Of a stretch of 64,000 nt of DNA, positions 5,924 through 56,841 are shown one piece after another. Under the pieces are notes generated by a model. The model searched no databases and had not been told where the DNA came from. It worked only from the letters and a program-made list of their open reading frames with translations. The translations under genes and the position numbers were made by a program. This DNA comes from an uncultured Candidatus Saccharibacteria bacterium (GTDB taxonomy: Bacteria > Patescibacteriota > Minisyncoccia > Phycocordibacterales > DATDWN01), in assembly GCA_964603545.1 (NCBI GenBank), contig CAZRVD010000001.1, positions 68,358 through 132,357 of the forward strand, given 5' to 3'. Positions within the stretch are counted from its first letter, which is position 1. The number at the start of each line of letters is the position of its first letter.

Positions 5924-8900
5924 TTACTCCATCAGCTTTACTTTGTCGATCAATATTGACTTCTCTCCATTTCTTAAAGAAAAAGTCCCTTTTATAACGA
6001 TGCAACTTTCAGGGATTAAAATGTCTTGAAATTCTTCAAAAATTTTAGGGAAAGCAACAACATCTATACTATCTGTTAGATCTGCAAGTTTTAGGAAAAT
6101 CATTTTGTCTCCCTTTTTTGTCATTACACTTCGGATTTCTTCTACAATACCCCCCACAACAACCGGAGCTCTTTCTGTGGCAGTTTCTTTTAATTTTTTG
6201 ATATTAGTTTCTCTTCCTTCCAACTTATGTTTAAAAGAATCCAGTGGGTGTCCAGAAATATAAAGTCCGAGAAGTTCCTTTTCCCATAAAAGTTTTTCAG
6301 CTGAGTCACCTGGCGGAGATAGATCAAGTTCAATTTCTGAAGCTTTAGTCGGAGTGGACATCAAAGAGAAAAGTGAATCTTGGTCAGATTCCTTGCTTCG
6401 CTCTTCTTTGTTGAAAGTAAGAAGTTTATCTAGATTAAAAAGTAATGTGCTTCGATCACTGCCTTTTGGTGTTATGGATTCAAGTGCTCCTGTTTTAATA
6501 AGAGCTTCCATAGATTTTTTATTTAAATTTTTATCTTTTATTCTACGAAGGAAATCAGAAAGGGTAGTAAAAGGCCCATTTGCTTTTCTTTCTGTAATTA
6601 TTGATGTTGCGATTCCTTCACCAAAGTTTTTAATTGTTGTTAGTCCAAAACGGATTGAGTCTTTTCCATTTGTCTTTATTACGGTGAAGCCTTCAAAAGA
6701 TTGATTTACATCTGGGGGAAGAACAAGAATTCCCATTCTTTTACACTCGCTAATTATTTCTGAAATCATGTCTGTGTCGCCCGATTCTGCTGTAAGGACG
6801 GCGGACATATATATTGCGGGGAAGTTGGCTTTCATATAAGCAGTTTGGTAAGCCACTTTTCCATAGCTTGCTGCGTGGGCTTTGTTGAAGCCATAACCCT
6901 GGAAAGGTTCAAACAAATTCCACAATTCTTCTGCTTTTTTCTCTGTCATCCCGCCATGCGTCTGACAGCCTTCAACGAATTTTACGTGTTGTTTTGCCAT
7001 TTCTTCGCGGATTTTTTTACCAACAGCCTTTCGGAATTTATCCACTTCACCCCAATTGTATCCAGCCACTTCAATAGCTGTGTAAAGAAGGTCATCTTGG
7101 TAAACTAGCACTCCAAAAGTTTTGTCCAAAAAATTTTTCATTTTTGGATGCAAATACGTCACGGGTTTTCTACCATGCTTTCTCTCAATGTATTCTTTTA
7201 TGTTATCCATCGGTCCTGGGCGGTACAGAGCTACCATAACATTTATGTCGTGAATTACAGTTGGCTTCAAATCCTTAAGAGATCGAGTCATCCCATCCCC
7301 GTTAAGTTGGAAAAGTCCAACGGTTTCTCCGCGGGCGAGCATTTCAAAAGTTTTTTTGTCATCCACTGGTACGTTTTCAATATCAATTTTTACTCCTTCC
7401 AGTTTTTCTGCTAGTTTTACGGCGTCTGCCAAAATAGAAAGGTTTCGTATTCCAAGAAAATCAAATTTAAGTAACCCCACGCCGTCTTCACCAACATCAT
7501 TCATGTCGTATTGAGTTATTATTTTATTGTCACCTTTTGTGTCGTATTGTAGTGGCACATAGTCAGTAAGTGGTGTAGGGGAGATCACCACACCAGCTGC
7601 GTGCACAGAGATGTGTCTTGCTCCACCCTCTATTTTTTTTGCCATATCTATTATTTTTCGGACATCAGTTTGTTCTGTGTACATAGTTTTGAGTTCCGGG
7701 TTTTCTTTCAGTGCTCTCTCAAGGGTCATTGGGAAACCTTGTGCGCCCATGGGGATTTGTTTGGCTATCGCATCTCCCAGACTATATGGAAAACCAAGTG
7801 CACGTGTTACATCTCGCACTGCACCGCGAGCCGCCATTGTTCCAAATGTTCCGATTTGAGCCACTTTGTCTATACCGTATTTCTGCCTTGCATAGTCAAT
7901 CATTTCATCACGTCTATCATCGGCAAAATCCATATCAATATCTGGTGCTGATGGTCTGTCTGGGTTTAGAAATCTTTCAAACGGTAGTTTGTATTCAATA
8001 GGGTTTACGTTTGTGATTCCAGAAAGAAAAGTAACGAGTGAACCAGCCACCGAGCCTCTAATTGTTGTTAGTATTCCATGTTTGTGAGCGTAGTCTAGCA
8101 GGTCATATACAACAAGAAAGTATGGTGCGTATCCTTTGTCCTTGATAACCTTAAGTTCGTATTCTATTCTTTCTAATAGTTCTGGAGTCTTTTCTAGTTT
8201 TCTTTTTGGGATACCTTCAAAAACTATTCTTCGAAACTCGTCATCGTGAGAGAGACCACTTTCTACGATAAAATTTGGTAAAAACCATTTTCCAATAGAA
8301 ATTTCTAGGTTACATCTGTTTGCAATTTTCTCGTTGTTTATTAGCGCCTCTGGTAAATCTTTGAAATATTTCTCTACGATTTTTTGATTTATAAAAGAAA
8401 AGTCGTCTGTTCCTTCTTCCACCTTTTCGTCACTTTGTGACTGAATAGCAAGTAGAGTTTCGCGAGCCACTCTATCTTCTTTGTTTATATAATAGACATC
8501 ATGATTTGCAACAATGGGGGTGTTTGTCTCTTTGGCAAAAGTTATCAACTTTTTCATATTTTCCTCGTGGCCTTTCATCTCTGGGTGGTGAGTGATTTCA
8601 ATATAAAAGTTCGGGACTTCAGTTGTCCCAGCGAATGTTTTTTTGTACCATTCTACTCTTTCTAGTGCCTGTTCCTTATTTCCTGTTTCAAGCGAGGATA
8701 AAATATCGTTTGAAAAAGATGGGGCAATTGCAATAAGTCCATCAGAGTATTTTTCCAAAAGTTCCCTGTCCACTCTCGGTTTGTAGTAGAAACCTTCAAG
8801 GTGCGCGAGTGTCACAAGTTGGATTAAATTTTTATAACCTTTTTCATTTTTCGCAAGAAGCACTAGTCTGTAGCGCTGTTTGTCTATACCGGTTTGTTTT

Positions 8901-9793: not shown

Positions 9794-9839
9794 TTTTTCT
9801 GAATGGATAGTGTAAAGTATTCCCACTATGGTAGTACGA

Positions 9840-10055
9840 ATGCGTCATACAAAAAGCCAGCGAAACCGAACAAGGTCTCACCACAGACTCTCTAAACCTG
9901 CGGTTACAATGGATAAAAACACAAATGTTCCTCACTTAAGACACAGAGCTAGTCTTCAAACTGGTCAATATAAAGGTAGAACAGTAATAGATATTACAGC
10001 AAAGCTAGAGCGTAAAAACAAGAAAGCAAAAGCCTCTAAAAAAGAAGGAAGATAA
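9840..10055 (+). CDS. rpmF: 50S ribosomal protein L32
   Basis: MRHTKSQRNRTRSHHRLSKPAVTMDKNTNVPHLRHR matches the bL32 pattern (KKSRSRRDMRRSH...HLRHH). The ORF 9828..10055 is trimmed to an internal ATG. Confidence 0.75.
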   Translation: MRHTKSQRNRTRSHHRLSKPAVTMDKNTNVPHLRHRASLQTGQYKGRTVIDITAKLERKNKKAKASKKEGR

Positions 10056-10080
10056 AAACCTCCGAAACGGAGGTTTTTAT
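10054..10080 (+). terminator. rho-independent terminator after rpmF
   Basis: AAAACCTCCG-AAAC-GGAGGTTTTTAT. Confidence 0.7.
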
Positions 10081-10136
10081 CTTAATTAAAATTTGTAAAT
10101 TTTTATAATTGTTCTATACTGTAATCAAACAGTAGT

Positions 10137-11048
10137 ATGGCAAACAGGCACCTTTCAAGATCAATAGTCTTACAATCGCTCTTTGAGTGGGATTTTAATT
10201 CCAAAAATTCTGAAGAGGCGACATCTATCTTTAATCGTGATGTACTAGAATTTGCCCCAGGTACAAATGATATGTCTTTCATGGAAGGTCTCATGAAGGG
10301 TGTTTTAGAGAAACAAAAAGATATAGATTTAATAATAGAAAAAGCTGCTCCTGACTGGCCAATAGATAAAATAAGTGTGATGGATAGAAATATCCTCCGA
10401 ATAGGCCTCTACGAACTACTTTTCTCTGAACGCTCACAAGTACCTCCAAAAGTTGCTATAAATGAAGCAATTGAACTTTCCAAAGCTTTTGGAGGAGAAA
10501 CTTCAAGTAAATTTGTAAACGGAGTTTTGGGCGCGGTGTACAAAGAACTTGGAGAGCCCGGGAAAGAAGAGACAAGTAAAAATAAAAATAATAAATCTTT
10601 TAGTGGAGCTCCTGTTGCCACAGAAAATCTTGGTGGTGCCGTTGTTTATGCAAAAGATGGGGAAGATATTTATCTAGCACTAGTTCACGATGTTTTTGGA
10701 CGTTGGACATTGTCCAAGGGTAAGATTGCTAACACACCAGAGACTGTTGGCGAAACATTAAAAGAGGGAACGGTAAGAGGGATAAAGGAAGAACTTGGTT
10801 TGGATGTAGAAATCAAAGAAAAGTTGGGTGATAACGAGTATATTGCATATCATCCAGAAAAGGGAAAGATAAAAAAGCACGTTACTTTCTTTTTGGCTGA
10901 GTCGCCATTTAACGATATTGTAAGAGAAGAGAAGGGGGGGCTAGATGATGCAAAATGGTTCAAACTTGCTGACATCCTTGATTTAAATTTTTATAACGAT
11001 ATACTACCTCTCGTGACCAAGGCGATTAACTTATTACTGAAGAAATAG
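10137..11048 (+). CDS. nusB: NusB antitermination factor fused to a C-terminal Nudix hydrolase domain
   Basis: N-terminal ~140 aa are NusB-like (SRSIVLQSLFEWDFN, LRIGLYELLF). C-terminal ~150 aa carry a Nudix-like box (GRWTLSKGKIANTPETVGETLKEGTVRGIKEELGL: E-x7-R-[G]-I-x-E-E-x-G-L). One continuous 303-aa ORF. Confidence 0.7.
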   Translation: MANRHLSRSIVLQSLFEWDFNSKNSEEATSIFNRDVLEFAPGTNDMSFMEGLMKGVLEKQKDIDLIIEKAAPDWPIDKISVMDRNILRIGLYELLFSERSQVPPKVAINEAIELSKAFGGETSSKFVNGVLGAVYKELGEPGKEETSKNKNNKSFSGAPVATENLGGAVVYAKDGEDIYLALVHDVFGRWTLSKGKIANTPETVGETLKEGTVRGIKEELGLDVEIKEKLGDNEYIAYHPEKGKIKKHVTFFLAESPFNDIVREEKGGLDDAKWFKLADILDLNFYNDILPLVTKAINLLLKK

Positions 11049-11148
11049 ATACGAATATGGGAACAAGGAAAATTACGAATATATACGAATAGAATTCATT
11101 CGCATACATTCGTAATTGTATTTGATTTCATTCGTATCTCAATCACAT
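11048..11148 (+). promoter_or_regulatory. three-level nested inverted repeat of the heptamer TACGAAT/ATTCGTA in the rnc leader
   Basis: GATACGAAT...ATTACGAAT..TACGAAT-agaattc-ATTCGCA..ATTCGTAAT...ATTCGTATC. It could fold as one ~95-nt interrupted hairpin ending 8 nt before the rnc ATG. Confidence 0.55.
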
Positions 11149-11839
11149 GCAACCAGACTTAAAAGAATTTCAAAAATCCATAGGAATTACGTTCACTGAT
11201 GCGTCACTAATCACGCAGGCTTTTGTGCATCGTTCATATATAAACGAAAACAAACAGTCGGGGCTAAGTCATAACGAAAGATTGGAGTTTTTGGGAGACG
11301 CAGTTCTAGAACTTGTTATTACAGATTTTTTATACAAAAAATATACAGACAAAGCAGAGGGTGAACTTACCGCGTACAGGTCAGCTTTGGTAAACGCAGA
11401 TACTTGCGCTGGGATAGCTACAAAACTTGGAATGGATCAGTACCTCATGCTTTCAAAAGGTGAGAGTAAAGACACTGGAAGAGCAAGACAGTATATATTA
11501 GCAAATGCACTTGAGGCTCTTATTGGTGCAATTTATTTAGACCAAGGATTAGAAAAAGCACACGAATTTATAGAAAAGAATTTTACTCCAATGATTGAAA
11601 AAATTATTTTGGAAGGAAGTCATGTAGACAGCAAGAGTTTGTTTCAGGAAAAAGCACAAGAATTTGATGGTATCACTCCAGCCTACAAAACAATAAAAGA
11701 GTCAGGCCCAGATCATGAGAAAAAATTTACAGTTGGTGTTTATCTTGGCAAAGAGCTGGTTGCGACTGGTGAGGGGGAGTCAAAACAAGATGCAGAGCAA
11801 GAGGCGGCGGAGGAAGCACTATCTAAACGAGGTTGGTAG
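11147..11839 (+). CDS. rnc: ribonuclease III
   Basis: RNase III signature NERLEFLGDAVLELVI. C-terminal dsRBD. 230 aa. Confidence 0.9.
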   Translation: MQPDLKEFQKSIGITFTDASLITQAFVHRSYINENKQSGLSHNERLEFLGDAVLELVITDFLYKKYTDKAEGELTAYRSALVNADTCAGIATKLGMDQYLMLSKGESKDTGRARQYILANALEALIGAIYLDQGLEKAHEFIEKNFTPMIEKIILEGSHVDSKSLFQEKAQEFDGITPAYKTIKESGPDHEKKFTVGVYLGKELVATGEGESKQDAEQEAAEEALSKRGW

Positions 11840-12461: not shown

Positions 12462-12512
12462 AAGCACACTTAAAGAAAGGCACATTCGCTTTTCGAGAGT
12501 GTGCTTTTTCTG
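12462..12512 (+). terminator. hairpin terminator of cassette B that reuses the GCACAC/GTGTGC arms
   Basis: AAGCACACT...(27-nt loop)...AGTGTGCTTTTTC. Confidence 0.45.
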
Positions 12513-12543
12513 TTACAGAAAAATTGTTATACTGAAAAGTGAA

Positions 12544-14802
12544 ATGTATTTAAAAAGTATCGAATTATCTGGGTTTAAATCTTTCGCGAAAAAAAGCGAA
12601 CTCTCTTTTAATTCAAAAGTTTCTGCCATAGTTGGTCCAAACGGTTCTGGAAAGTCTAATGTTGCGGAAGCTTTTCGCTTCGTACTTGGAGAGCAGTCAA
12701 TAAAAAGTCTGCGTGGAAAAAAGGGTGAGGACCTTATCTTTAATGGCGCAGGGGATTTGCCTAGAGCAAACAGGGCGTCTGTAAAGGTAGTTTTTGACAA
12801 CACCTCTAAATTTCTACCAGTGGACTTTGAAACAGTAACAATAGAGCGTGTTGTTCATAGAGACGGGGTGAACGAATATTTAATAAATGGCTCGCAGGTA
12901 CGACTGAGGGATGTGGTAGAGCTTTTGTCGTCTGCACATATTGGCTCCTCTGGGCACCACATTATCTCTCAAGGTGAAGCAGATAGAATACTAAACTCCA
13001 GTCCAAAAGAGAGAAAAAACATGATAGAGGATGCACTTGGTCTCAAGATGTATCAGTACAAAAAAACAGAAAGTGAAAAGAAGTTAGAGAAGACGCGGGA
13101 AAATATTGGGCAGGTGGAGTCTCTAAGACGGGAGATTTTACCTCATATAAAATTTCTTAAAAAACAAGTAGAAAAAGTTGAGAGGGCAATACAAATGAAA
13201 GACGAGCTACAAAGGGAAGCATTAGAGTATTGCAAACGAGAAGACGATTATATTAAAAAGACAGAAGAGAGACTGGCAAAAGAAAAAGAACCATTGAGTC
13301 GGAAAGAAAAAGAACTTGATCACGAACTTAAAACAGCTAAATCTGTTTTGGAAAGAGCCAAAGACAAAGATGGTTTGTCAGACAGACTCATACAACTTGA
13401 AAACGATTTACATAAGACAAGAGATGAGAAAGACGAACTATTTAAAAATTTTGGTCGACTAGACGGGGAGATAAACTCTTTAGTAAAAATGGTTAGAAAG
13501 CAGGAGGAGGTTGCGAGGTCAATCGAGCACAAAACAGTCACCCTAGTTTCTGTAGAAGAACTTTCTGTCAAAATAGAAGAGAGGGTAAAAAAAGCGAGGG
13601 GTTCTCTTGATGTGAATACACTTGCATCAACTTTAGACGAAGTTTTTACTATGTTAGTAGATTTTATTGACCACAACAAAGACAAGGTAGAAATGTCACT
13701 TATCGCAGATGTACAAAGAGATATAGATAACTTACAAGTTTCCAAAAAAGAGTTAGAAGAGAAGTTAGAGAAAATAAACAAGGAAGAAAAAGAATTAACT
13801 CTGGAATATAACAAACTAAAAACAGAAATAGAAAGAGAGAAAGATTCAAACAGAGATGCAGAGAAAGCAGTATTCAGAATAATGGCAGAGTCTGGGGAGG
13901 TGAGATCTAGCCTTCACGACATTACTCTTCAAGAAGAAAACTTGAAGTTGGTAAAAGATGATTTCAAAAGGGAATTAACGGAGCTCGGAGTTTTACTTGG
14001 AGTCCATTTATTACAATTTAATAATTTTGTTATAGAAAATACAGATGAAGACAGACACACACAGGAAGAGAGGAGAAAAAGAATAGAAAAAATAAAAATC
14101 CGTTTAGAGGATTCTGGTGGTGTTGCTGGTACTGAGATTTTGAAAGAATATACAGATGCTACAGAGAGAGATTCTTTTCTTGAAAAGGAACTTTTGGATT
14201 TGCAAAATTCAGCAACTTCACTTGGTACTCTTATAACGGATTTGGATCAGAGACTTTCTTCGGAGTTTAAAACTGGAGTTGAAAAAATAAATACACAGTT
14301 TAAAGAATATTTTTCTATGATGTTTGGAGGTGGGGAAGCGAAGCTTGAAGTTACACTGCCTGTAAAGAAAAAGAAAAAAGATACAGATTTACTTTCTGAA
14401 GATGAAATTGTAGAAGAAGCAGAGTCTGAATCGCTTGAAACCTCCGATGAAGGGATAGAGATTGAGGTAAATTTGCCAAAGAAAAAAGTTAAGGGACTCA
14501 TGATGCTATCTGGTGGAGAGAGAGCGTTGACTTCTATTGCACTTCTTTTTGCAATCTCTCAGGTAAATCCTCCACCTTTTATTATCTTAGATGAAACGGA
14601 TGCGGCGCTAGACGAGGCCAATTCTAAAAAATATGCAGATATGGTTGAGAACCTTTCAAATCGTTCCCAGCTCATTGTTATTACTCACAATAGGGAGACA
14701 ATGTCTCGGGCTGGAATACTTTATGGTGTAACCATGGGCGCAGGAGGTGGCTCAAAACTACTTAGTGTTGCTTTTGAGGAAGCTCTAGCAGTAGCTAAGT
14801 AA
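12544..14802 (+). CDS. smc: SMC-family chromosome segregation ATPase (short form)
   Basis: Walker A VGPNGSGKSN at the N-terminus. Signature and Walker B LSGGERALTSIALLFAI...ILDETDAALD at the C-terminus. Long coiled coil between them. The ATG at 12544 matches the SMC N-terminus MYLKSIELSGFKSF. Confidence 0.8.
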   Translation: MYLKSIELSGFKSFAKKSELSFNSKVSAIVGPNGSGKSNVAEAFRFVLGEQSIKSLRGKKGEDLIFNGAGDLPRANRASVKVVFDNTSKFLPVDFETVTIERVVHRDGVNEYLINGSQVRLRDVVELLSSAHIGSSGHHIISQGEADRILNSSPKERKNMIEDALGLKMYQYKKTESEKKLEKTRENIGQVESLRREILPHIKFLKKQVEKVERAIQMKDELQREALEYCKREDDYIKKTEERLAKEKEPLSRKEKELDHELKTAKSVLERAKDKDGLSDRLIQLENDLHKTRDEKDELFKNFGRLDGEINSLVKMVRKQEEVARSIEHKTVTLVSVEELSVKIEERVKKARGSLDVNTLASTLDEVFTMLVDFIDHNKDKVEMSLIADVQRDIDNLQVSKKELEEKLEKINKEEKELTLEYNKLKTEIEREKDSNRDAEKAVFRIMAESGEVRSSLHDITLQEENLKLVKDDFKRELTELGVLLGVHLLQFNNFVIENTDEDRHTQEERRKRIEKIKIRLEDSGGVAGTEILKEYTDATERDSFLEKELLDLQNSATSLGTLITDLDQRLSSEFKTGVEKINTQFKEYFSMMFGGGEAKLEVTLPVKKKKKDTDLLSEDEIVEEAESESLETSDEGIEIEVNLPKKKVKGLMMLSGGERALTSIALLFAISQVNPPPFIILDETDAALDEANSKKYADMVENLSNRSQLIVITHNRETMSRAGILYGVTMGAGGGSKLLSVAFEEALAVAK

Positions 14803-56424: not shown

Positions 56425-56841
56425 CTATTTAAAACATTTCATGCATTTACATCCAACTGGTTTCAAGTGTTCGTCAAAGTATTCCTTGCCATAGTCGTAG
56501 GTAAGTTCCTCGCCCGCTTTGATGTTTTTAATCGCAGAGATAAAGACTCTTCCTGCTGGTCCATCGGCTTCGCAGTTACCGACACATGAGTGGTTTATAA
56601 ATCGAGCCGTGTTACTTTTTATATTTCCGTTTATGGTTTTATTTTTACCCACTTCAAAAAGGTATTTACTGTTGATTGTGTACAAATCTTTTTCTTTCAT
56701 CAAAATCCCCGTGTATTCAATAATACAACTCCCTTTAGGTATTGGGCTAAGAGTAAAAAGGCCCTTTCCAGTTCCTGATTTTTTAACTTTTAATGCAAAG
56801 TTTCCTGGGGTGTATTTACTTTTTTTCATACGGTTTTTCAT
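56425..56841 (-). CDS. SET-domain protein (lysine methyltransferase-like)
   Basis: RFINHSCVGNC...ELTYDY and post-SET CKCMKC. Confidence 0.7.
   Translation of the reverse strand: MKNRMKKSKYTPGNFALKVKKSGTGKGLFTLSPIPKGSCIIEYTGILMKEKDLYTINSKYLFEVGKNKTINGNIKSNTARFINHSCVGNCEADGPAGRVFISAIKNIKAGEELTYDYGKEYFDEHLKPVGCKCMKCFK

Follow-up and report, generated by a model that had tools for sequence, protein, structure and literature searches.

Organization of the fusion gene

The window analysed here is a stretch of 64,000 nucleotides (nt) from contig CAZRVD010000001.1 (GenBank assembly GCA_964603545.1, positions 68,358 to 132,357 of the forward strand), deposited as DNA of an uncultured Candidatus Saccharibacteria bacterium. 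Between rpmF and rnc, at positions 10137-11048 of its forward strand, it contains an open reading frame (ORF) that starts with ATG, terminates with TAG and encodes 303 amino acids (aa) without interruption. The deduced protein consists of a NusB domain, a linker and a Nudix-fold domain. NusB is a universal, normally single-domain part of the machinery that transcribes rRNA and helps to fold it. The elements of the gene are listed below with the evidence for each of them (AF2, AlphaFold2; pLDDT, predicted local distance difference test).

10137..11048, plus strand: nusB::nudix fusion gene, 303 codons and a TAG stop, both Pfam domains in one ORF
10137..10556, plus strand: NusB domain, residues 1-140, seven helices (TIGR01951, PF01029, phmmer, AF2)
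10557..10628, plus strand: flexible linker, residues 141-164 (K/P/E-rich; pLDDT <50 for residues 140-158)
10629..11045, plus strand: Nudix-fold domain, residues 165-303, Ap(n)A-hydrolase-like and catalytically degenerate (PF00293, AF2, Foldseek)
10719..10802, plus strand: degenerate Nudix box, residues 195-222, G195-X10-E206-X7-R214-G215-I-K-E218-E219-L-G221-L
10779..10781, plus strand: codon GGG of Gly215, replacing the "RE" Glu (alignment to Ndx1, variability on the 80-taxon tree)
10938..10940, plus strand: codon GGG of Gly268, probably replacing the distal Glu of standalone homologues (by motif position)

An original prediction, made from the letters of the window, had described a single uninterrupted ORF of 303 aa in which a typical NusB is fused in frame to a Nudix-fold domain. 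Both statements were confirmed, the first by the same two-domain ORF in 120 of 120 protein clusters and at 80 of 80 loci, the second by Pfam profiles of the two domains which scored above their cut-offs. The signature string given there for the Nudix domain, GRWTLSKGKIANTPETVGETLKEGTVRGIKEELGL, corresponds to residues 188-222. Seven G in a row at 10934-10940 make up the final base of codon K266 and the entire codons of G267 and G268; such a homopolymer is error-prone in sequencing, yet the frame and the motif GGLDDAKWF are kept in all relatives.

The NusB half

The Pfam profile NusB (PF01029) matches residues 7-136 (E = 1.2e-33; 116.8 bits, cut-off 23.1), and the NCBIfam equivalog model nusB (TIGR01951) scored 127 bits against a cut-off of 88.35. 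By phmmer, the N-terminal half was aligned to the NusB structures of T. maritima, A. aeolicus and E. coli with E values between 1.9e-18 and 3e-15. The AF2 model revealed an all-helical fold composed of seven helices (residues 4-20, 25-39, 46-58, 60-70, 81-96, 104-118 and 121-138), with block pLDDT values of 81-94 across residues 1-130. Two segments aligned to the structures 1tzt and 3r2c are conserved, the basic N-terminal segment M1-I10 including R4 and R8, which is invariant in the family, and the helix KFVNGVLG, in which K125, F126 and N128-G132 are invariant. Profile score, fold and both segments identify this half as a member of the NusB family. Judging from these features, it probably retains NusB function, i.e. 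binding of S10 (NusE) and boxA. A six-frame scan of the window with hidden Markov models of the two families detected no second nusB or nudix gene.

The Nudix half and its relatives

As for the proposed profile check of the C-terminal half, Pfam NUDIX (PF00293) matched residues 168-286 (E = 6.4e-9; 36.4 bits, cut-off 21.1). The AF2 model of this half (pLDDT 87.3; predicted template modelling score, pTM, 0.81) shows the alpha/beta/alpha Nudix fold, and a Foldseek search with the model retrieved 510 Nudix matches in the Protein Data Bank (PDB) at E<=1e-3. The best match was the diadenosine tetraphosphate (Ap4A) hydrolase aq_158 (3i7u; E = 2.5e-10, TM 0.74-0.86), and further top matches were the Ap6A hydrolase Ndx1 (1vc8), mycobacterial MutT1/Rv2985 (6m72, 9cxx), CT771 and the Ap4A hydrolases of C. 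elegans and human (NUDT2), with 4mpo, 1ktg and 4ijx among the top entries. For 3i7u, 1vc8 and 6m72, E values were about 1e-10 to 1e-9; taken together, matches of the diadenosine polyphosphate (Ap(n)A) type had E values of 2.5e-10 to 3e-8, TM scores of 0.70-0.86 and 20-27% identity. The motif W-T-x-(P/S)-K-G of Ap(n)A-type enzymes is shared as well; it reads WTLSKG in the window protein (P to S) and contains the invariant K194. The Nudix domain of the ADP-ribose-sensing NrtR (3gz8) ranked 5th, BdRppH only 43rd, and the NCBIfam RppH model NF001936 yielded 12.9-14.7 bits against a cut-off of 118. Since the nearest structures are of the Ap(n)A type, and RppH performed poorly both as a model and as a fold match, the Nudix half is, as far as profiles and folds indicate, a descendant of small Ap(n)A/NTP-type Nudix hydrolases and not of RppH. 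Membership in the RppH family was rejected on the score far under the cut-off, the fold rank of 43 and the retention of only one Mg ligand, the equivalent of RppH E57.

An exhaustive phmmer search with residues 160-303 against 1.84 billion representative proteins gave 563 proteins at E<=1e-3, 134 of them at E<=1e-10. Full-length matches were overwhelmingly NusB+Nudix proteins of 280-360 aa. Many of the short matches were fragments, a few were genuine standalone proteins of ~140 aa and three had other architectures. Judged by its matches, the Nudix half forms a distinctive subfamily with few members.

The standalone protein P0160 (150 aa; L081, 5001-5453) is encoded in a phage- or mobile-element-like locus with an integrase, a DNA methylase and a faint Phage_rep_O match, and the standalone relative P0221 lies among metabolic genes in a seemingly different kind of genome, not beside nusB. 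P0216 (577 aa, a singleton; L087, 3605-5338) has a long N-terminal extension, which by eye includes a cold-shock-like segment, followed by a partial NusB and a subfamily Nudix domain; its neighbours are an NB-ARC STAND NTPase, a DDE transposase and a HEPN_Swt1 protein, so that the NusB-Nudix module may have been co-opted into a defence-island-like context there. In P0220 (379 aa) the subfamily Nudix domain is C-terminal to segments that by eye resemble sigma-70 region 4 and a DnaA-C-like helix-turn-helix, a layout that recalls Nudix-sensor regulators of the NrtR type. P0132 and P0151 combine the C-terminal two-thirds of the subfamily Nudix domain with unrelated N-termini, another Nudix-type N-terminus in one case and (by eye) an endonuclease-V-like segment in the other, and are probably chimeric assemblies or recombinants. 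In four fusions (P0127, P0138, P0147 and P0205) the Nudix half opens precisely with a Met (MP[IV]E...), which the window protein lacks there, and the short database entries P0134 and P0142 begin at this residue. The Met could be left over from the ancestral start codon, could mark internal initiation or could be an artefact of gene calling on short contigs.

Distribution of the fusion

To the protein survey contributed the 120 best-scoring 90%-identity clusters from a collection of 5.8 billion proteins. All 120 carry PF01029 together with PF00293; they are 75-93% identical, mostly 293-352 aa long and originate from NCBI, JGI, ENA and Logan. Where cluster members bear a name, it is only "transcription antitermination factor NusB". 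For the locus survey one genome per species was scanned; at least 193 species genomes encode a relative of the fusion, and 80 of these loci were examined. The two domains are fused in a single ORF at all 80 (61-89% identity), thus answering the question whether relatives possess the fusion or separate genes. The ORF is full length (query residues 1 to about 300) in 79 cases, and at the one other locus, L020, it is cut by the contig end. Sequence and length of the linker vary among the loci.

Going by their labels, the loci belong to Zambryski-, Kaiser-, Adler-, Taylor-, Wolfe- and Nomurabacteria and to "Paceibacterota/Minisyncoccia", that is, to the Parcubacteria; the labels "Saccharibacteria" and "Nitrospira" on some of them are the submitters' own and probably unreliable. 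Parcubacteria make up a large fraction of the Candidate Phyla Radiation and are uncultivated, ultra-small and mostly symbiotic organisms with reduced genomes. The fusion is a clade-wide, long-standing architecture in Parcubacteria/Paceibacteria and not an oddity of this genome; under the name NusB it is already present in public databases. More divergent fusions, whose Nudix halves are about 31-37% identical, were also found. For one of these, P0217 (L086, 4001-4873), precomputed Pfam annotation lists only NusB and PF00293 is no longer detected. Because the Nudix domain escapes detection in divergent members, domain-based surveys undercount the architecture. Searchable literature, including the main survey of the Nudix clan, contained no mention of a NusB-Nudix architecture, which agrees with the earlier statement that it was undescribed. 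It thus appears that nobody has described this fusion, though the proteins are abundant in databases with both Pfam domains precomputed.

Decay of the catalytic residues

Conservation was determined as mean pairwise identity in a set comprising the window protein and 80 orthologues, and residue changes were counted by parsimony on a neighbour-joining tree of 80 taxa that was calculated from the columns outside the Nudix box. Identity amounted to 0.71 in NusB, 0.65 in the Nudix half, 0.47 in the Nudix box and 0.45 in the linker. Nudix families usually conserve their box better than any other part, but here it is the least conserved part of the Nudix domain. On the tree, the site of the glutamate in the RE pair (RE-Glu) showed eight residue types and at least 29 changes, with E in only 24 of the 80 taxa. 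E206, the Glu of GX5E, changed at least 15 times and R214 at least 12 times. All five key residues of the box occur together in only 21 of the 80, and at least 15 switches between canonical and degenerate boxes were counted. By contrast, K194, K244, K247, D270 and W274 never change, E219 is present in 79 of 80, and the E218 site (E or D) is almost invariant like E219. We take the three lysines to be phosphate-contacting residues, which line the phosphate/metal site in homologous enzymes. Among 35 more divergent fusions E was found at the RE-Glu site in seven, and the entire box is canonical in 11 of 11 distant standalone homologues. At the distal site of the motif E-[IV]-x-D-A-x-W-F, 29 of the 35 divergent fusions have Gly, whereas 8 of the 11 standalone relatives have Glu.

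In the window protein the complete box GX5EX7REUXEEXGU is not present, due to an insertion of five residues (201-205), by which GX5E becomes GX10E, and to the change of RE to RG. In the alignment to Ndx1, G215 faces E46 and E219 faces E50, which is exchanged in the E50Q structure 1vc9; hence, of these two glutamates, only the second has a counterpart here. The ligands of Mg1-3 in RppH are E53 (the RE-Glu), E57, Q37 and E120 (PMC7144940), and NudB binds its metals through E56, E60 and E117, the latter outside of the box (PMC5526541). The G215 site is equivalent to Ndx1 E46 and RppH E53 and corresponds to NudB E56. By its position in the motif, Gly268 would occupy the site of the distal metal-binding Glu, matching RppH E120 and NudB E117. 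The window protein would thus keep one of three carboxylate metal ligands, the part of G268 in this count being deduced from motif position. The loss of a catalytic Glu to Gly had been correctly recognized, but its numbering had not: Gly215 replaces the first Glu of REUXEE (R214-G215-I-K-E218-E219), and it is the second one only if the whole 23-residue box is counted. The suspicion of a divergent, possibly inactive Nudix box is well founded, given the RG pair, the five-residue insertion, G268 and the drift of the sites.

The ratio of nonsynonymous to synonymous substitution rates (dN/dS) in the Nudix half was 0.01-0.05 for the least saturated pairs and as low as in NusB, dS being saturated for most pairs. 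Among the three Arg-Gly proteins (window, L001 and L002) it was about 0.04-0.05, with dS saturated, demonstrating that the Nudix domain stays constrained after loss of the RE-Glu. Within the box, dN was two to four times that of the remaining Nudix domain. Outside the active site, the C-terminal helix DLNFYxDILPxVTKAI and the segment GGLDDAxWF form near-invariant surfaces; in the divergent fusions, conservation of the helix motifs is much lower. The canonical catalytic residues are therefore dispensable, while the lysines, E219 and the outer surfaces are under strong purifying selection.

Linker and domain arrangement

Across the family, the linker is rich in K, P and E, 20-29 aa long and basic, with an isoelectric point (pI) of about 8.9. 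In the full-length AF2 model of the window protein, residues 140-158 are disordered (pLDDT <50), and the two domains are each predicted with confidence, while the pTM of the whole is only 0.52. Two separately folded domains joined by a disordered linker fit a tethered module. A fixed NusB-Nudix interface was considered and rejected, as none was predicted in this model. Both domains are acidic, with pI values of about 5.2 (NusB) and 5.4 (Nudix) and a net charge of about -6 for the Nudix domain.

Genomic neighbourhood

The fusion gene is flanked by the following elements.

9828..10055, plus strand: rpmF (ribosomal protein L32), upstream on the same strand in 77 of 80 loci, with a weak Ribosomal_L32p match in L086
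10093..10120, plus strand: promoter-like site TTGTAA-16-TATACT, a weak candidate (9/12 match; such sites are no commoner than in shuffled sequences)
11047..11139, plus strand: long imperfect hairpin filling the spacer that separates the fusion gene from rnc (dG -31.7 kcal/mol, z -5.5)
11147..11839, plus strand: rnc (RNase III), directly downstream on the same strand in 79 of 80 loci, often 3-50 nt away

The identity of rnc in relatives was ascertained by Pfam Ribonuclease_3 and dsrm matches in L085 and L086. It is followed by smc in 68 of the 80 loci, giving the kept order rpmF - nusB::nudix - rnc - smc, and the divergent fusions keep the order dnaE/rnhB/(rpmF)/nusB::nudix/rnc. The adjacency of rnc is suggestive because the antitermination complex boosts co-transcriptional cleavage by RNase III (bioRxiv 10.64898/2026.03.17.712431). 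Upstream of the fusion gene, at 10049-10083, a hairpin of 16 bp that contains G+C and is flanked by T-runs on either side overlaps the end of rpmF (stop at 10055). It looks like a bidirectional intrinsic terminator that would separate rpmF from the fusion gene.

The 93-nt hairpin of the downstream spacer (11047-11139) contains inverted repeats and is single-copy in the window; none of 200 shuffled sequences was as stable. Long, stable hairpins of unrelated sequence are present in relatives with long spacers, too (L001, L002, L005, L008, L014, L015, L019, L030, L032 and L046). The leader of E. coli rnc is an autoregulatory substrate of RNase III, and the spacer hairpin could likewise be such a substrate in the rnc leader, or else a terminator or an insertion hotspot. 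Between nusB::nudix and rnc of L001 (4933-5014) and L002 (2381-2462), an 82-nt hairpin element is 98.8% identical in opposite orientation, although substitutions at synonymous sites of the adjoining genes have reached saturation, which points to a mobile or invertible palindrome or to an RNA structure under very strong constraint.

Other genes of the window have housekeeping functions (gyrB, dnaE, rnhB, RNase R, rpsP, trmD, dnaG, rpoD, rpoB, rpoC, hisS, bipA, fmt and def). Pfam scans of about 40 ORFs of the window revealed no SuhB, NusA or NusG, and the window contains no rRNA operon and only one tRNA. The SMC homologue at 12499-14802 has only 767 aa, unusually short for a bacterial SMC, and its SMC_N matches are split head domains, with no hinge domain detected at E<=1e-5; its counterpart in L086 comprises 700 aa. 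A small SET-domain protein of 138 aa is encoded at 56428-56841 (PF00856, 2.7e-21), and in L086 a SET-domain gene (7694-8104) directly follows smc.

Possible function of the Nudix half

A binding or regulatory role of the Nudix half fits the data better than catalysis, with residual or non-canonical hydrolysis being possible. With slightly better than even confidence, we suppose that the NusB half works as usual, and that the Nudix half, held on its tether, binds a Mg-(poly)phosphate with very slow turnover or none and/or serves as a docking surface. According to this model, the NusB half would bind S10 and boxA on the nascent rRNA leader, as in other bacteria, and a flexible tether of ~24 residues would join it to a Nudix fold descended from Ap(n)A/NTP-type hydrolases. 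The canonical catalytic apparatus has been taken apart in the fusion lineage: the RE Glu varies freely, Arg and the Glu of GX5E are missing from many members, and Gly has taken the place of the distal Glu. The retained residues K194, K244, K247 and E219 would hold a Mg-(poly)phosphate ligand, for which a nucleotide, a dinucleoside polyphosphate, an alarmone and the 5'-polyphosphate end of an RNA are candidates. Binding this ligand without turnover, and presumably acting in the context of rRNA transcription and RNase III processing, the Nudix half would modulate or stabilize the antitermination/rRNA-processing complex with no bulk hydrolysis.

Several points speak against this model. The acidic charge of the Nudix half argues against extensive RNA binding; such binding in the manner of CFIm25 is disfavoured for this reason, a local site being still conceivable. 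The equation of G268 with the distal Glu was deduced from the motif and not from a structural superposition. The kept gene order, observed within one class, may reflect shared ancestry and not functional coupling. Moreover, 21-25 of the 80 species keep a fully canonical box, so that some orthologues may be active enzymes, and E218/E219 together with the invariant D270/D271, E234 and E255 could constitute a non-canonical hydrolytic metal site. In some Nudix enzymes the base lies outside the box, and others manage without one from the protein (PMC5526541).

These last points lead to an active pyrophosphohydrolase on the antitermination complex, an unlikely reading, though one with several observations on its side. 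Using a partly non-canonical active site, such an enzyme would remove a 5'-triphosphate, Np4A or NAD cap from the leader or destroy Ap(n)A or (p)ppGpp locally. Pfam NUDIX scores above threshold, the nearest structures are true hydrolases, E218 (E/D) and E219, the latter aligned to Ndx1 E50, are almost invariant, the presumed phosphate-binding lysines do not change and the box is complete in 21-25 of the 80 orthologues. The catalytic base of Nudix enzymes varies and is perhaps dispensable (PMC5526541), and RppH itself has NTPs and (p)ppGpp among its ligands and hydrolyses them slowly (PMC7144940). However, two of the three carboxylate Mg ligands of RppH are Gly in the window protein (the sites of E53 and, by motif position, E120). 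The RE-Glu drifts through eight residue types with at least 29 changes, though the domain is under strong purifying selection, from which it follows that the conserved function needs no RE-Glu. Conservation of the box does not exceed that of the linker, and neither the RppH model (12.9-14.7 bits versus 118) nor the rank of BdRppH (43) points to an enzyme of this type. For the same reasons (a box drifting like the linker, E at the RE site in 24 of 80, a distal Gly and the low RppH score), the initial idea that the fusion places nucleotide or RNA 5'-end chemistry on the NusB/NusE complex has been weakened.

A more specific form of the binding model is that of a tethered sensor or clamp, derived from the decayed Ap(n)A hydrolase, which binds a nucleotide signalling stress or growth rate (an Ap4A-type dinucleotide, (p)ppGpp or an NTP) or the 5'-polyphosphate end of the leader, and thereby switches or stabilizes the engagement of NusB/S10 with boxA and the hand-over to RNase III. 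It is proposed here with considerable reserve. If it held true, these bacteria with minimal genomes would possess a built-in, SuhB-like stabilizer, and their ribosome synthesis would respond to nucleotides at the steps of elongation and processing; no model organism is known to have such a level of regulation.

It is rather improbable that the Nudix half has come to serve protein-protein contacts or structure alone, with no small-molecule ligand, perhaps as a stabilizer of NusB/S10 playing a SuhB-like part or as a docking site for RNase III. The near-invariant surfaces outside the active site, especially DLNFYxDILPxVTKAI and GGLDDAxWF, are in line with such a scaffold, and so are the neighbourhood of rnc in 79 of 80 loci, the acidic Nudix half and the need of E. 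coli for SuhB to integrate NusB/E stably (PMC6614801). But it leaves the invariance of E219 and of K194/K244/K247 unexplained, the full-length model (pTM 0.52) contains no confident interface with NusB, and the helix motifs are much less conserved in divergent fusions. An artefact, by which adjacent nusB and Nudix genes were joined through a frameshift or misassembly in the A-rich, low-complexity junction (about 10560-10600), can be practically dismissed, since the check for a frameshift or stop at ~10560-10620 showed a continuous ORF in 80 of 80 independent assemblies with different linkers and in 120 of 120 clusters, and since the database entries resembling standalone Nudix proteins of ~140 aa, which might suggest split genes, are mostly short-contig fragments, the genuine standalones residing in unrelated loci and not beside nusB.

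The preferred model of a tethered binder has implications beyond this locus. A clade-wide, strongly selected extension of NusB means that rRNA synthesis or processing in Parcubacteria includes an element which model organisms lack. The drift of the catalytic box within an otherwise frozen domain provides a clear case from nature of an enzyme fold that has probably become a binding module, and the fusion could help to show how nucleotide pools might be coupled to rRNA transcription and processing. Annotation hides the Nudix domain, as the proteins are named plainly NusB and Pfam misses NUDIX in divergent members.

Comparison with known systems

The fusion shares with canonical NusB (structures 1tzt, 3r2c and 3d3b) the fold, the equivalog score, the basic segment and the KFVNGVLG helix. 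Unlike canonical NusB, a single domain of about 140 aa, it possesses in addition a linker of 24 aa and a Nudix domain of 139 aa, and it is located between rpmF and rnc. A NusB-like N-terminal domain in front of an enzyme-type domain is likewise found in RsmB/Sun, the 16S rRNA m5C967 methyltransferase, which also serves ribosome biogenesis. The N-terminal half indeed matches RsmB models at 7.6e-16 and the structure 1sqf, with 57.9 bits for RsmB against a cut-off of 319. The partner domain in RsmB is, however, a methyltransferase and not a Nudix domain, and the NusB part of the fusion is of the genuine antitermination-factor type.

With the Ap(n)A hydrolases (aq_158, Ndx1, MutT1 and NUDT2) the Nudix half has in common the fold, the motif W-T-x-(P/S)-K-G and E219, the counterpart of Ndx1 E50. 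What separates it from them is Gly at the E46 site, the five-residue insertion in the box, Gly at the site of the distal Glu, the unconserved box and the attachment to NusB. RppH has the Nudix fold, too, and acts on RNA 5' ends, but of its Mg ligands only the equivalent of E57 is kept here.

A further parallel is provided by SuhB, an enzyme-fold protein that in E. coli is necessary for NusB/E to be integrated stably (PMC6614801). In both cases a small-molecule-processing fold, in SuhB that of a phosphatase, would have been recruited to NusB/E; this is a functional analogy only. SuhB has an inositol monophosphatase fold, is a separate polypeptide and binds NusA-AR2.

Non-enzymatic Nudix domains are a recognized class (PMC5389931). 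CFIm25/NUDT21 is a UGUA-binding mRNA 3'-processing factor (Yang et al. 2010, cited in PMC7705103). The fusion resembles this protein and NrtR in its Nudix fold, its degenerate box and its direction towards nucleic acids, which defines a functional class and not a homologous family. CFIm25 reportedly lacks two Glu and binds Ap4A without hydrolysing it. Whereas NrtR contains a winged helix and CFIm25 has CFIm68/59 as partners, the fusion shows no specific sequence relationship to either of them. What it shares with both is the coupling of a degenerate-box Nudix fold to a nucleic-acid-binding function, realized here through NusB.

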